DNA of 64,000 nt, taken from an uncultured delta proteobacterium (lineage in GTDB: Bacteria > Desulfobacterota > Desulfobacteria > Desulfobacterales > JAFDCJ01). The position numbers and the translations under genes are program-made. The notes beneath the pieces are model-generated. The model had not been told where the DNA came from, made no database searches, and saw only the letters and a list, made by a program, of their open reading frames with translations. Position 1 is the first letter of the stretch. The number at the start of each line of letters is the position of its first letter. The stretch is taken from contig CAVYNY010000020.1 in the NCBI GenBank assembly GCA_963769935.1, forward strand, positions 1 through 64,000. Direction: 5' to 3'. Below, one piece after another: positions 26,782-31,397 of the stretch.

Positions 26782-27450
26782 ATGGCAAAGAAAAAAATAT
26801 TTTTAGCATCTTCATCCGAATTGAAAGATGACAGAGTCGCGTTCGAACTTTACATTAATCGAAAAAACAAGGAGTGGCATGATAAAGGTATTTTTCTTGA
26901 ACTGATATCTTGGGAAGATTTTTTAGATGCCATGTCGCAGGAACGGTTGCAGGATGAATACAACAAAGCCATCCGTGAATGCGATATATTCGTGATGCTT
27001 TTTTTTACCAAAGTCGGAAAATATACGAATGAAGAGTTTGAAACTGCATTCGGACAGTTCAAAAAAACCAATAAACCGTTTATTTATACGTATTTTAAGG
27101 ATGCTGCCATAACTACCGGCAGTGCGAATCGGAAAGACTTGATGAGTTTGTATGCGTTTCAAGACAAATTAGACCGCTTAGGCCATTTTTATACTGTTTA
27201 TAAAAACATTGACGATCTGAAATACCAATTTGAACGCCAATTGGATAAATTGGCCGATGGCGGCTTTATTCAATTTGAACCGGAAAAAGATCAGGATGGG
27301 CAGAAACCGACCGCCACTACCAAAATCGGCCGTACCGTCCGCGATTCCGAGGTGGAATCTCTCTCAGAGGGCGGCAATTCTCGAACTGAGGTGGGCCAAG
27401 ACGTAATAGGGTCAAAAATAACGACAAAATCTACGATGAAGGCGAAATGA
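26782..27450 (+). CDS. TIR-like (DUF4062-type) effector domain with two C-terminal pseudo-repeats
   Basis: KIFLASSSELKDDR...W-ED...LQDEYNKAIRECDIFVMLFFTKVGKYTNEEF; GGGAGGTG RBS; tail TKIGRTVRDSEVES / TEVGQDVIGSKITT. Confidence 0.75.
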   Translation: MAKKKIFLASSSELKDDRVAFELYINRKNKEWHDKGIFLELISWEDFLDAMSQERLQDEYNKAIRECDIFVMLFFTKVGKYTNEEFETAFGQFKKTNKPFIYTYFKDAAITTGSANRKDLMSLYAFQDKLDRLGHFYTVYKNIDDLKYQFERQLDKLADGGFIQFEPEKDQDGQKPTATTKIGRTVRDSEVESLSEGGNSRTEVGQDVIGSKITTKSTMKAK

Positions 27451-28304
27451 GTCTCATGTCGACCAATGAACCCATTCCGGTAAGTGAAATCGTCAATTTT
27501 GATGAAATGCTAAATAAATTCAAGAAGATGATATCCGGCCCCAATTCCAAAAAAATTATGATCATCGTTGCGCGGGACGGGCGTGGCAAGACGAGTTTAT
27601 TGCGTAAAATGCAACATCACTGTCAGTCCCTGGAAGTGCCCAGCTGCCTGATAGATCTCTCCCAAACTTATAATTTCCCCCATCTGGAATTGGCCAGAGA
27701 AATTTGCGAACGACTACAGTTGCCAATGACGGCTTTAACGGAAGCCTTCAGCCCAATCAGTGCTCCTGCTGGAAAATCAGGAGTTAAAATGGAAGCATCC
27801 ACTAAAATAGGCGGCAATGTCATTGATTCAACGATTGAAACCAAAAACATTCTCCAAATCGTCCTGAACAACGAGGCCCTTCATAGCGAAGATATTAAAA
27901 GGCGGCTCAGCCGCAGCCTCGCCTCTGATATCACATCGGGTAAAAAAATGATGGTATGTCTTTTTGACACTTTTGATACCGGAACCAGAGTAGTTACGGA
28001 TTGGTTAATAGAGGCCCTTTTGCGTCCTATTCGAGAGCGGGGGATAGATAACCTGATTGTAATTATTGCCGGAAGTGCGTGGCCCCAAAAAATAAGTGAT
28101 GTGGATTGGGAAGCCCATGCAGAATTCATAGAAGGAATGCCATTGATGTCAAAGAATCATCTATTGGAGTTTGCAGAGAGAATCGGATGTGAGTTGTCAC
28201 AAGAAGAACTTGAAACATGCTGGTTGGGCTGCGGAAAAGGCAGGCCGCTGTTAATGAATATGTTCATCAAAACTTTATGCAGTGAGAAAAGATCAAGTGG
28301 TTGA
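27447..28304 (+). CDS. STAND/AAA-like P-loop ATPase
   Basis: Walker A ARDGRGKT, Walker B MVCLFDTFD, sensor LIVIIAGS, C-terminal GxP (GRPL); ATGA overlap with the upstream stop. Confidence 0.75.
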   Translation: MSLMSTNEPIPVSEIVNFDEMLNKFKKMISGPNSKKIMIIVARDGRGKTSLLRKMQHHCQSLEVPSCLIDLSQTYNFPHLELAREICERLQLPMTALTEAFSPISAPAGKSGVKMEASTKIGGNVIDSTIETKNILQIVLNNEALHSEDIKRRLSRSLASDITSGKKMMVCLFDTFDTGTRVVTDWLIEALLRPIRERGIDNLIVIIAGSAWPQKISDVDWEAHAEFIEGMPLMSKNHLLEFAERIGCELSQEELETCWLGCGKGRPLLMNMFIKTLCSEKRSSG

Positions 28305-29727
28305 AAAATTAAAAGATTCAACACCGAATATGGATGACGAAGAACTTTTGGCTGCAATTTTAAATCAGATTATGGATATGGCGGGACAAGATGTTGCAGC
28401 AGCGATTAATTTTTGTGCCGTACCGCATTGGTTCAATGAAAAAATACTTTCATGGTTGCGGGATGAACCTGAAATTTCAAATCGGACACGTTCAATTCTT
28501 GCTCAATTAAATGAATTAGGTTTGGCAATGCGGTACAAACCCAAGAATTGGATGTTTCACAAAATGACACGCGATTTTTTATTGAAAAAATGGTGCCGGA
28601 TAAATCCGGTTGGCTTTAAACAGTTGAATCTAAGGATGGCCGAACTTTTTCAAAATAGTGCCGCAAATAGGTTTGAATTTATCTATCATCTATTGGCCGG
28701 GGGCGACCCAAAGGGCTTTGAACTGTTGGTAAAAGACGTCGCGCAGTCCAATCGGCTTTATTATTTCAGCACCGCGGAAAGACTGCTTGGTTTGGCAAAA
28801 GAACCATGTATCAGGCTATTAAGATCGCAACAGAATCAATTACAGTATTATGATGCAGAGCTGGCGGCGATATCAGGCTATTGGGATGAAGCCCTGCCAA
28901 CACTCAGGCTGCTGAAGCAGAGAAAATTGCCGGAAGATCTTCTGGCAAAAGTTTTTCTTCGCTTGGGGACTGTTTATAACCGAAGAGGACAATGGACCCA
29001 TGCAATTAATAGTTACCGGAAGTGTCTGGATCTTGGGGATAATGTTGAACCGAGCGACAGGGCTTGGGCTTACAGTGGACTGGGACTTATCTATGGCTGG
29101 CAGGGAGAATGGGGGCAGGCTGAAAAATGCCATAATTTCGCGATGCGTGTCGCCGAACAATCAAACGACCAGCTTTGGTTGAGCCGAGCCGTCAATAATC
29201 TCGGTGAAATATTTCAACAAACCGGGCAGCTGGAAAAGGCAAAAGACCATTATCAAGAATCCATCCGCATGAAAAAGGTCTTGGGCGATCGTTTTGGGCT
29301 CTTATGGACCTATAATAATTTAGGCTCCTTATACCTTAAACTTGGTGAACGGTCCAGGGCCTCAAAAGTGCTGAATAGAAGCCTAAACTTGGCACGCAAA
29401 CTAAAGAGCCCTGAAGAAGAAGCGCGAGCCTTGGAGTTTCTGGGAGCGCTTCAAACGCTAAAGGGGAATTTTAAGCGGGCGAATGACTACTACTTGGAAG
29501 CTTTAAAAATATGCGAGAAAGTCAATGAACCGCACATAAAGGCTGATATCCAGTCAAAAATGGGCATCTCATATGAACAGGAAGGAAGGATCAAAGACGC
29601 AATAGCTGCTCTTGCGGAAGCGCTGGCAATTTATAAGAAACTGAAGAGCCTCCAAGCCGTTGAGACTGTAAAAAAAATAAATGAATTAAAGAAGTCGGCG
29701 AGCAAAGCGTCTAAGTCAAATGGTTGA
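28282..29727 (+). CDS. Winged-helix plus tetratricopeptide-repeat protein (STAND sensor part)
   Basis: CAVPHWFNEKIL...WMFHKMTRDFL followed by ~40-aa TPRs (AVNNLGEIFQQTGQLEKAKDHYQES, TYNNLGSLYLKLGE). Confidence 0.85.
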   Translation: MRKDQVVEKLKDSTPNMDDEELLAAILNQIMDMAGQDVAAAINFCAVPHWFNEKILSWLRDEPEISNRTRSILAQLNELGLAMRYKPKNWMFHKMTRDFLLKKWCRINPVGFKQLNLRMAELFQNSAANRFEFIYHLLAGGDPKGFELLVKDVAQSNRLYYFSTAERLLGLAKEPCIRLLRSQQNQLQYYDAELAAISGYWDEALPTLRLLKQRKLPEDLLAKVFLRLGTVYNRRGQWTHAINSYRKCLDLGDNVEPSDRAWAYSGLGLIYGWQGEWGQAEKCHNFAMRVAEQSNDQLWLSRAVNNLGEIFQQTGQLEKAKDHYQESIRMKKVLGDRFGLLWTYNNLGSLYLKLGERSRASKVLNRSLNLARKLKSPEEEARALEFLGALQTLKGNFKRANDYYLEALKICEKVNEPHIKADIQSKMGISYEQEGRIKDAIAALAEALAIYKKLKSLQAVETVKKINELKKSASKASKSNG

Positions 29728-29733
29728 AACCGC

Positions 29734-30960
29734 TTATCTTAATATTATCAGACCCCGATTATGAAGTTGCGCCACTAAATCGATGCCATCCTGCCCGAAG
29801 AGTTTATATATTTCATGCATTTTCGTATCCCCGGTGCACATATCCAATATAGCCTTTGCTTCCCCGCTGACAGGGACGACCTGGCTGTTTTGAATCAGAA
29901 TATAGCCGAAGGGTTCGGGTCTCATTTGAAAGCATTTAACAGGGCGGGCCTCTTTCGGAAGATTAATCTTTTTTCTCTTATCGTGGAGATCGATGGGGAG
30001 CGGATCACGGATGAGAGGGTCTTGCGGCAGTTCGTTTATCATCGCCGCCGCGCGGCAACCTCCATGGCAGCTTGTGTAGACTGAACATCGATCGCAGAAA
30101 GACGGTATAAAACGTCTCCACTTCTGCATTCCCTCGCTGTGCCAGATGACTTGCAGCGAACTGTCCAGCAAGTTTCCGCAATTTGCAGCAGACATGACGC
30201 AGGGACGGACGTTGCCCCAGGGGTCGATCGTCAGGGTTATCGTCCCGGCCAGGCATCCATTGAATAACGTTGAATTATGGAAGCACTTTGGTATGCAGAC
30301 GCTGCTGAAAATGGGAATATCTGAGTCCCTCATCTGATTTGTGATGGCTTGAATAGCGGATATCAGCTGAGGATTGGAGGGGTTTAGCTGATTTTCTTTC
30401 AAGCAGACAAATCTGCTGAAAGTAATGCCTTGCGAACCTAATTTTCGATTGATTCGCACCATCTCCTCTATGCGATCAAAGTTTAACGATGTGATGATAC
30501 AATTGATAAATACGCGAAGATGATGATCCGCCGCGAAACGAATATTTTTGCAAGTCTCTATGAATGAACCCGGTATTCCTGTAAAGCCATCATGGCTTTG
30601 AGCATCCGGGCCATGTAAAGATACCAGGATTTCGGAAAATCCTGAGAAAGCACCGAGCGTACCGACAATTTGCTTCTTGCTAGGCCATCTTGCGTTGGTG
30701 AATAGTGAAAAAGAAAATTCGAGTTTGTTTATCAGGGTAAGTAATTCGGTGAAATTCGGACTGAGTGTCGGCTCCCCTCCTGTTAGATTCAGATGAACAA
30801 CAGCGGGCTTGAGCTTGGATAATATGGTCTGCCAGACATCAATATTGATAATGGTTTGATTATCGTCAACTGCGAATACAGTGCCGCATCCGCTGCAATT
30901 ATTGTTGCAACTAGAGGTGACTTCCAGGTACGCGAAAACAGGTGAGGATGGAATTATCAA
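29734..30960 (-). CDS. Radical SAM/SPASM peptide maturase with C-terminal PqqD/RRE-like domain
   Basis: CNNNCSGC, TGGEP, VSLHG, SPASM cysteines GCLAG...IDPWGNVRPC...CDRCSVYTSCHGGCRA; ~70-aa tail MRPEPFGYILI...AKAILDMCTG...LVAQLHNRGLI; TTG start. Confidence 0.9.
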   Translation of the reverse strand: MIIPSSPVFAYLEVTSSCNNNCSGCGTVFAVDDNQTIINIDVWQTILSKLKPAVVHLNLTGGEPTLSPNFTELLTLINKLEFSFSLFTNARWPSKKQIVGTLGAFSGFSEILVSLHGPDAQSHDGFTGIPGSFIETCKNIRFAADHHLRVFINCIITSLNFDRIEEMVRINRKLGSQGITFSRFVCLKENQLNPSNPQLISAIQAITNQMRDSDIPIFSSVCIPKCFHNSTLFNGCLAGTITLTIDPWGNVRPCVMSAANCGNLLDSSLQVIWHSEGMQKWRRFIPSFCDRCSVYTSCHGGCRAAAMINELPQDPLIRDPLPIDLHDKRKKINLPKEARPVKCFQMRPEPFGYILIQNSQVVPVSGEAKAILDMCTGDTKMHEIYKLFGQDGIDLVAQLHNRGLIILR

Positions 30961-31005: not shown

Positions 31006-31161
31006 GGGCTCACTCAAAAATAACTTCACATTTTATACGCCGATGCATCTCATGCGGCTGCGTTGCGAAAGCTCGGAATATCCAGATATTCCTGCGTTTT
31101 CGCGCCTTGCCGCAAGAGCGCCTCAACGCTTAAAACTGTGAATTAATTTTTTCGTGAACCC
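31006..31161 (-). mobile_element. 156-bp MITE-like element, copy 1
   Basis: Imperfect terminal inverted repeats GGGCTCACTCAAAAATAACTTCACA / TGTGAATTAATTTTTTCGTGAACCC, flanked by TAA on both sides; internal palindrome GGAATATC-CA-GATATTCC; closely similar inverted copy at 36461-36616. Confidence 0.85.
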
Positions 31162-31397
31162 TAAGGAATTGGCGCCGGGCACTGAGCATTTGGGTTTGGG
31201 CACTGGACACTCGGTGTCGGGCACTGAGCCAATCGCCGGGCTTCGGGGTTGGGGCATTGAGAAAAATACACTTGACCGCTGAGATTTTTCTGTTGCCCTT
31301 CTCCAATAGTACCAGGAGTCAGCTCACAATGAAAATTAACTCCTTGCGATGGGTAAAAATCAAGCAAATAGTTTCGTCTTTTATCACGCGCTTTCAT
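31161..31397 (-). CDS. Putative RiPP precursor peptide with four QCPxP repeats
   Basis: GAGGGGG RBS; core QCPNP-EARRLA-QCPTP-SV-QCPNP-NA-QCPAP-IP*; synonymous Pro/Gln codons differ between repeats; directly upstream of and co-oriented with the rSAM gene. Confidence 0.8.
   Translation of the reverse strand: MKARDKRRNYLLDFYPSQGVNFHCELTPGTIGEGQQKNLSGQVYFSQCPNPEARRLAQCPTPSVQCPNPNAQCPAPIP

Follow-up and report, generated by a model that had tools for sequence, protein, structure and literature searches.

Matching motif copies in a predicted internal loop of a split STAND-like ATPase and in the tail of the adjacent TIR-like effector in a Desulfobacterales contig

The window, which is the whole stretch of DNA analysed, comprises the first 64,000 nucleotides of contig CAVYNY010000020.1 from an uncultured delta proteobacterium of the Desulfobacterales. 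The locus under study shows three overlapping genes in a run on the + strand, encoding an effector, an ATPase and a TPR protein, and a radical SAM/SPASM gene on the opposite strand. The genes and their internal features are the following:

26782-27450, + strand: TIR/DUF4062-like effector of 222 aa, with a TIR-like domain (residues 1-163), a linker and a two-repeat tail
27313-27366, + strand: R1, 18-residue motif copy (effector residues 178-195)
27379-27432, + strand: R2, 18-residue motif copy (effector residues 200-217), 22 residues after R1
27447-28304, + strand: STAND-like P-loop ATPase of 285 aa, from a family of 444 representatives (model pLDDT 86)
27570-27593, + strand: Walker A of the ATPase (residues 42-49), with G47 and K48 invariant in 95 aligned members
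27744-27872, + strand: variable slot of the ATPase (residues ~100-142), predicted to lie outside the ATPase core, with exchangeable content in relatives
27795-27848, + strand: R0, single 18-residue motif copy within the slot (ATPase residues 117-134)
27951-27977, + strand: Walker B of the ATPase (residues 169-177), with D174 invariant in 95 aligned members
28297-29727, + strand: TPR protein (TPR_12, E=5.8e-37); the longest frame opens at 28282
29734-30960, - strand: radical SAM/SPASM gene, convergent with the TPR gene and found at the same place in locus L010; candidate member of the system only

The effector stop and the ATPase start overlap in an ATGA at 27447-27450, and the start of the TPR gene overlaps the ATPase stop. 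The receptor is split over two genes, one encoding the ATPase (27447-28304) and the other the TPR protein (28297-29727). In P0168, a relative with ATPase and TPR in a single chain, residues 325-432 resemble the first 150 residues of the TPR protein, which makes it likely that the two genes here encode what is one STAND receptor. These first 150 residues also match the genes that follow the ATPases of loci L010, L193, L194 and L199, and the TPR protein is likely the split-off half of the receptor that carries the sensor and a presumed winged helix. The system is single-copy in the genome and shows a GC content of 0.44, against 0.54 in its left neighbour. Contigs from the RNA libraries of one study cover the effector, the ATPase and part of the TPR gene, which is not evidence of transcription. 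Radical SAM/SPASM-like genes adjoin TPR or STAND genes in the window (29734-30960, - strand), in L010 (7830-8669) and in L200, and in L198 a cysteine-motif gene of radical SAM/SPASM look is located beside such genes; a link of these neighbours to peptide modification is possible. Short imperfect repeats of about 7-21 bases are present at 31150-31260, downstream of the radical SAM start region.

The initial annotation had described a 14-residue motif shared by both proteins, and the three peptides are indeed in frame at 27319-27360 (R1), 27385-27426 (R2) and 27801-27842 (R0). R2 begins 22 residues after R1 (14-residue copies at effector residues 180-193 and 202-215), and R0 (ATPase residues 119-132) is flanked by Walker A (42-49) and Walker B (169-177), both as had been claimed. 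Identity between R1 and R0 is 8/14 in amino acids and 26/42 in DNA, between R2 and R0 it is 7/14 and 22/42, and between R1 and R2 it is 4/14 and 17/42. A recent DNA duplication was ruled out as the origin of the copies, since their DNA identity is just 17-26/42. An unguided search for the best triple of 14-mers, two in the effector and one in the ATPase, returned exactly R1, R2 and R0. The score of this triple was reached by none of 5000 whole-protein shuffles and none of 5000 local-composition shuffles, and that of the best single pair alone by 18 of 5000; chance is excluded as the origin of the three-copy match.

Homologues lengthen the motif to 18 residues with a period of 22 residues, and the 18-residue copy of R2 ends five residues before the effector stop. 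In 17 copies, taken from six effectors and five ATPases, positions 1, 3, 5, 9, 12, 14, 16 and 18 are uncharged in all 17, positions 4 and 17 are charged in 15, and Pro is absent. An alternation of uncharged and charged positions is the pattern of beta-arch motifs and of stacked beta strands. The composition of the 17 copies is S/T 0.29, V/I 0.19, G 0.12, K 0.09, N/Q 0.07, L 0.02 and P 0. A profile built from the effector repeats alone gives R0 a score of 39.7; across the genome, searched as 32,924 six-frame stretches, the runner-up reaches 25.0, and the effector and ATPase genes are the only good matches genome-wide. A generic low-complexity match was ruled out by the shuffles, by this genome-wide profile search and by the decoy tails described below. 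R0 identity among five split ATPases is 0.85, compared with 0.61 in the preceding loop and 0.77 in the core. A strain variant found in two runs of one study shows five amino acid changes in R1 with the pattern kept. No Pfam or NCBIfam match was found on the motif, and neither the effector nor the ATPase shows a Pfam match to the HET-s prion-forming family at E<=0.1. In the searched part of the PMC8086366 supplements, two pieces of the motif of 5-6 letters gave 0 matches and two others gave 27 (a generic piece) and 17.

The TIR/DUF4062-like label given to the effector stands as a weak resemblance, with matches to TIR_2 (E=1.2e-4) and DUF4062 (E=9.7e-4) that are both under the Pfam cut-offs. Residues 5-154 match PADLOC PDC-S60 (E=5.7e-12). 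E84 and E85, presumably the catalytic position, are invariant in 20 aligned relatives, and a non-significant alignment places them opposite the acidic pair of a DUF4062 domain. A PDB sequence search returned no solved relative of this TIR family. The family contains 1864 relatives, and the best 120 of these show a constant TIR-like domain followed by several unrelated tail types rich in G, N, S, T, V and I. Among 159 family loci taken, 65 encode a complete stand-alone protein with a tail of 25-130 residues. The tail matches a neighbouring protein in 45 of these 65 loci; eight have no neighbour on the contig and 12 show no significant match. The match starts within the first 110 residues of the neighbour in 44 of the 45, lies after a detected Walker A in none, and is followed by a downstream Walker A in 23. 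Since the loci are related, the 45 are not counted as independent events. These tail-neighbour pairs have the published BASS layout. Because tails match neighbours in 45/65 loci, the window tail would be a coupling tag by family habit, and what sets the window locus apart is the position of the partner copy. The initial annotation had considered a TIR effector unusual, but such effectors are known for BASS pairs according to the available part of Dyrka 2020 (10.1101/2020.01.06.895854), and only the internal position of R0 is unusual.

Other arrangements were observed in the TIR family. Many relatives (L005, L019, L033, L041, L083 and others like them) show the TIR domain, at least one G/N-rich motif and then a helical domain of ~100 residues, and in the L005/L019 type the effector, too, carries its tag internally. 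Loci L006, L009, L011, L017, L031 and L113 encode long chains in which a G/N-rich motif separates the TIR domain from a fused NTPase region; in chains of the L006/L009 type this motif could recruit further effectors. A protein search with the tail only returned the close relatives and P0303 alone, and P0303 was dropped as an apparent chimera.

The ATPase shows weak Pfam matches to AAA_22 and NB-ARC, the latter at E=0.033 and under the cut-off, and a PDB sequence search gave only weak P-loop matches, including MalT and PH0952. Seven close relatives and a family of 444 representatives at E<=0.001 were found, and these close relatives and the best 150 of the 444, which were inspected, show a variable slot between Walker A and Walker B. 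The AlphaFold2 model made from 95 sequences has a mean pLDDT of 86 and five core strands, none of which is R0; an earlier fold from eight sequences (pLDDT 53) was set aside. Residues ~100-142 of the model show no helix or strand and a pLDDT of 48-61, a low value that may partly or only reflect variable alignment columns. R0 is thus predicted to hang in a loop outside the ATPase core. The possibility of a buried core strand, named in the initial annotation, was rejected, R0 being outside the core strands of this model.

Several types of short beta-prone motif occupy the slot in relatives, and among 50 proteins scanned it holds EAD7 in six and a whole DUF4062 domain in one; the window proteins themselves show no EAD match in Pfam. 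An EAD7 search of the genome that contains the window gave no match, and neither did its controls. Other members of the family carry an N-terminal TIR_2, CHAT, SEFIR, HD-CE, EAD1 or EAD7 domain. The distance between Walker A and Walker B was parsed in 143 of 157 sequences (24 N-extended, 114 stand-alone and five unclassed), and its median is 102 in the N-extended and 129.5 in the stand-alone proteins (p=3.5e-6, uncorrected for kinship); fused effectors go with a shorter slot. By an ad hoc slot composition score there are exceptions both ways: 7/24 N-extended slots score at least 10 and 27/114 stand-alone slots score under 9. A motif-like slot is kept in some N-extended proteins (P0160, P0206 and L010). 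From these sequences the slot appears to be a family-wide exchangeable dock. P0245, P0270 and P0175 show helical-looking slot inserts with no Pfam or NCBIfam match, and these are possibly unnamed adaptor domains.

Absence of the motif from paired homologues, another possibility named at the outset, was not the case: the motif is present there and co-varies in more distant pairs. In nine pairs, the best match of the last 60 residues of the effector was compared with 65 decoy tails and 2000 shuffles. In 9/9 pairs this match falls in the slot and outscores every one of the 65 decoys, and its score was reached by 0, 13, 104, 11, 0, 0, 53, 7 and 0 of the 2000 shuffles, so that two of the nine pairs (104 and 53) are weak by this measure. 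In three of the nine, additional pairs of the window type, the effector is joined to the ATPase solely by the equal size of their contigs. Five distant pairs (L193, L194, L196, L197 and L202), picked by eye from 10 distant loci, show other motifs and other effectors, and in three of them the effector carries two motif repeats against a single one in the slot. Of the remaining distant loci, L195, L198, L200 and L201 gave no pair of matching motifs, and L199 encodes a SEFIR fusion whose slot is empty. Given the slot and tail matching of the nine pairs, the internal position would be used by no fewer than three motif types in combination with three types of effector. The cross-score matrix of tails and slots is block-like; the L202 tail scores 48-50 on window-type slots versus 58 on its own, and for the L196 tail three other slots outscore its own (37).

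L193 and L194 show a small helical effector with two different motifs. These effectors, presumably "Bell-like", have no Pfam or NCBIfam match and fall in unnamed clusters of the Atlas. In both loci a second, motif-less ATPase is located between the effector and the slot ATPase, and the TPR partner of the slot ATPase (L193:1839-5768, - strand; L194:6928-10830, + strand) ends in a FHIPEP (FlhA-like) domain, with E=3.9e-40 in L193. L196, L197 and L202 encode a small protein in which two repeats accompany an N-terminal hydrophobic segment; its partner is an adjoining single-chain ATPase-TPR protein with one copy in the slot. These small proteins (L196:2771-3172, L197:5710-6156 and L202:1376-1708) form a candidate membrane effector type that belongs to no checked family.

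Split and fused forms of the system can be compared at one genomic site. In L010, a locus of a Desulfobacterales assembly that shares the neighbouring genes of the window locus and is 71-82% identical to it in DNA, the TIR domain and the ATPase form one chain of 466 aa; the 210 window bases of the tail and the stop/start region face 91 bases in L010. R0 has drifted in this fusion (profile score 27.5, against 33.6-39.7 in five split forms), and its site is deleted in the fusions P0007 (-0.5) and P0009 (7.2); two probable fusion fragments reach 22.6 (P0005) and 24.2 (P0008). In a second branch, the stand-alone P0129-P0131 keep the motif (19.7-30.4) and the TIR-fused P0133 and P0134 are without it (~3). 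On a tree of 19 cores the fused state must have changed three times, as well-supported branches demand, and shuffles show no clustering of this state either way. Because remnants of R0 persist in fusions, their sequences suggest that fusion came after the tag.

A slot that is merely tolerant of insertions, filled by a local duplication between neighbouring genes, would give a match with no function. This explanation agrees with the many unrelated inserts accepted by the slot, with the R0-like remnants in fused L010 and in P0005/P0008, and with the fused form at the same genomic site, where the tail is thus dispensable. It is nevertheless considered highly improbable: the copies share just 17-26/42 bases and yet keep their uncharged positions in 17/17 cases, conservation is higher in R0 than in the loop beside it, each of at least three unrelated motif types has its match in the adjoining gene, and R0 was deleted after fusion in separate branches. 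A coupling role is supported by the fact that fusions have lost R0 or let it drift, and by EAD7 and DUF4062 as alternatives in the same slot. R0 and R1-R2 are very likely, as judged from these sequence patterns, one shared tag that couples a split NLR-like receptor to a TIR-like effector.

Close relatives of the ATPase were found in none of 22 genomes of the same genus, many of which are incomplete; there are one strong and one weak match in 400 genomes of the order and one weak match in 400 of the phylum. Nothing was found in metagenome contigs scanned with the ATPase as a single-protein query or in viral contigs, and plasmids gave one weak match of unrelated layout. A broad ATPase profile found only weak or long single-chain matches in the class sample, and three phylum samples gave no match at E<=1e-20. 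These samples lay outside Chloroflexota, cyanobacteria and probably actinobacteria, so that partners were seen for a minority of the motif-slot ATPases and for none of the EAD7-slot ones. A phylum sample drawn around L035, a record titled Williamsia, contained the same genomes as the sample drawn around Nibrella, and the label of L035 may be wrong. The unpublished genomes G859 and G861 support none of the statements made here. A role in defence is inferred from the domains, the PADLOC candidate match, the single copy, the absence from the 22 genomes of the genus and the lower GC.

The reading of the initial annotation, in which receptor oligomerisation nucleates a beta-solenoid that activates the effector, is partly supported: coupling is backed by the comparisons above, and fibrils, cross-seeding and activation on oligomerisation are proposed by analogy, since NWD2/HET-S and Bab/Agp work by templating. 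The TPR protein would sense a trigger, probably phage-derived, and free the ATPase, whose ATP-dependent oligomers would cluster the R0 loops. The clustered loops would template R1-R2, each effector adding two rungs, and this stacking would cluster and activate the TIR domains, most likely with cleavage of NAD+ or nucleotides and growth arrest or death. Given coupling, a cross-beta mechanism is probable by analogy with these systems; the whole reading, a coupling tag that acts as an amyloid or beta-solenoid stack on ATPase oligomerisation, is on balance favoured on the same grounds. Several features count against it. Where BASS motifs are biased towards N, Q, G, V and I, the window motif is S/T-rich (0.29) and N/Q-poor (0.07), and K makes up 0.09 of it; a loop tethered at both ends should be sterically harder to stack than a free terminus; pair specificity is not clean, given the L202 and L196 cross-scores; and motif-like slots occur in some N-extended proteins and low-scoring slots in 27/114 stand-alone ones, in family counts that are uncorrected for relatedness.

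The strongest competing explanation is a beta complex of finite size that is not an amyloid, in which the tag couples the proteins without self-propagation: R0, R1 and R2 would form a small closed beta-helix or pair as edge strands, with a 1:1 or ring-sized product much as EAD7 would give from the same slot. The co-variation and fusion evidence fits this equally, the slot can also house a helical adaptor (EAD7), and a finite complex would be in keeping with a loop anchored on both sides, with the low N/Q content and with the charged outer positions of the motif. However, HET-s/NWD2 shows the same two-plus-one copies and a similar period (21 residues, against 22 here), other members of this TIR family have partners with N-terminal motifs, as in BASS, and tested BASS motifs form amyloids in the available part of their description; a finite complex is considered rather unlikely. 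Reversal of the direction, with the ATPase loop keeping the effector tail silent as a guard or antitoxin until activation releases it, is in accord with translational coupling through the ATGA overlap, which fits a stoichiometric complex. It appears very improbable, since an N-terminal TIR, CHAT, SEFIR or HD-CE fusion replaces the tag, an arrangement typical of effectors that are switched on when a STAND protein oligomerises, and since Bab/Agp and HET-S/NWD2, in the available descriptions, are cases of templated activation.

Beyond templated stacking at the window locus, the relatives point with a little better than even likelihood to a widespread, unnamed family of split STAND ATPases in which the loop between Walker A and Walker B is a dock for an amyloid-nucleating tag, for EAD7 or for the effector itself, and empties on effector fusion. 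If true, amyloid templating from an internal loop would double the places in which signalling amyloids need to be sought, and amyloid tags and folded adaptors would be plug-compatible at one site. It would also provide several new motif families and a compact three-gene system for TIR activation by amyloid, as well as a natural experiment on receptor rewiring, with split forms bearing the tag, fused forms without it and EAD7 in the same place.

The closest known systems are the BASS1-10 pairs, which in the available part of their description (10.1101/2020.01.06.895854) likewise show adjacent, collinear, overlapping genes and a short beta-prone shared motif at the effector C-terminus (about 20-25 aa, compared with a core of 18 residues in the window). 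The same source includes TIR2 among the known effectors, some motifs that are double in the effector and single in the receptor, and "all-in-one" fusions. BASS motifs are described there as rich in Q, N, G, V and I and poor in K, P and L; the window motif agrees in G (0.12), V/I (0.19), P (0) and L (0.02) and differs in N/Q (0.07), K (0.09) and S/T (0.29). The BASS receptor motif is described at the N-terminus of a single-chain NB-ARC/NACHT protein with TPR or WD repeats, whereas the window motif is inside the ATPase (117-134, after Walker A), which is under the NB-ARC cut-off and has its TPR on a separate gene; single-chain ATPase-TPR relatives do exist (L196 and P0168). The window host belongs to the Desulfobacterales and is not an actinobacterium or cyanobacterium, as are the BASS hosts described.

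HET-S/NWD2 (HRAM) of Podospora, in the part of PMC4344463 available, likewise contains two pseudo-repeats in the effector and one in the receptor encoded next door, with a period of 21 against 22 in the window, but R0 of NWD2 is N-terminal, the effector is a HeLo pore-former and the receptor is a single-chain NACHT-WD protein. Bab/Agp (BASS11), as far as described in the accessible part of 10.1101/2024.11.07.622273, shows that such tags can drive abortive infection in bacteria, and BASS11 also occurs with TIR, CHAT, EAD7 and NLRs; its motifs are at N- and C-termini and its receptor is a TPR-GreA/B-PIN protein without an ATPase, a comparison with the window made by description only. EAD-coupled conflict systems (Kaur et al. 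2020, PMC7159879; 2021, PMC8195603) have, in the parts available, a homotypic adaptor on the core and on a stand-alone effector, and EAD7 fills the same slot in relatives of the window ATPase; EADs are folded domains, in contrast to the window proteins, which are without EAD. The available parts of both papers describe no EAD or motif inserted between Walker A and Walker B. An internal tag or slot is likewise not described in the accessible portions of 10.1101/2020.01.06.895854, 10.1101/2024.11.07.622273, PMC8195603, PMC7159879, PMC4344463, PMC8086366, PMC12261475, PMC13506858 and PMC13581612, to which Table S2 and Fig. S5 of Dyrka 2020 and the source data of Kaur may be relevant. In the published descriptions found, within these portions, the receptor amyloid tag is N-terminal, and the BASS screen, as described in the part available, covered NB-ARC/NACHT N-termini only (10.1101/2020.01.06.895854). 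Systems of the internal-tag layout are invisible to the published screens because those screens searched protein ends only. The window pair appears, by its sequence, to work like BASS and HRAM and to depart from them in two defining features, the N-terminal receptor motif and the single-chain NB-ARC/NACHT receptor.
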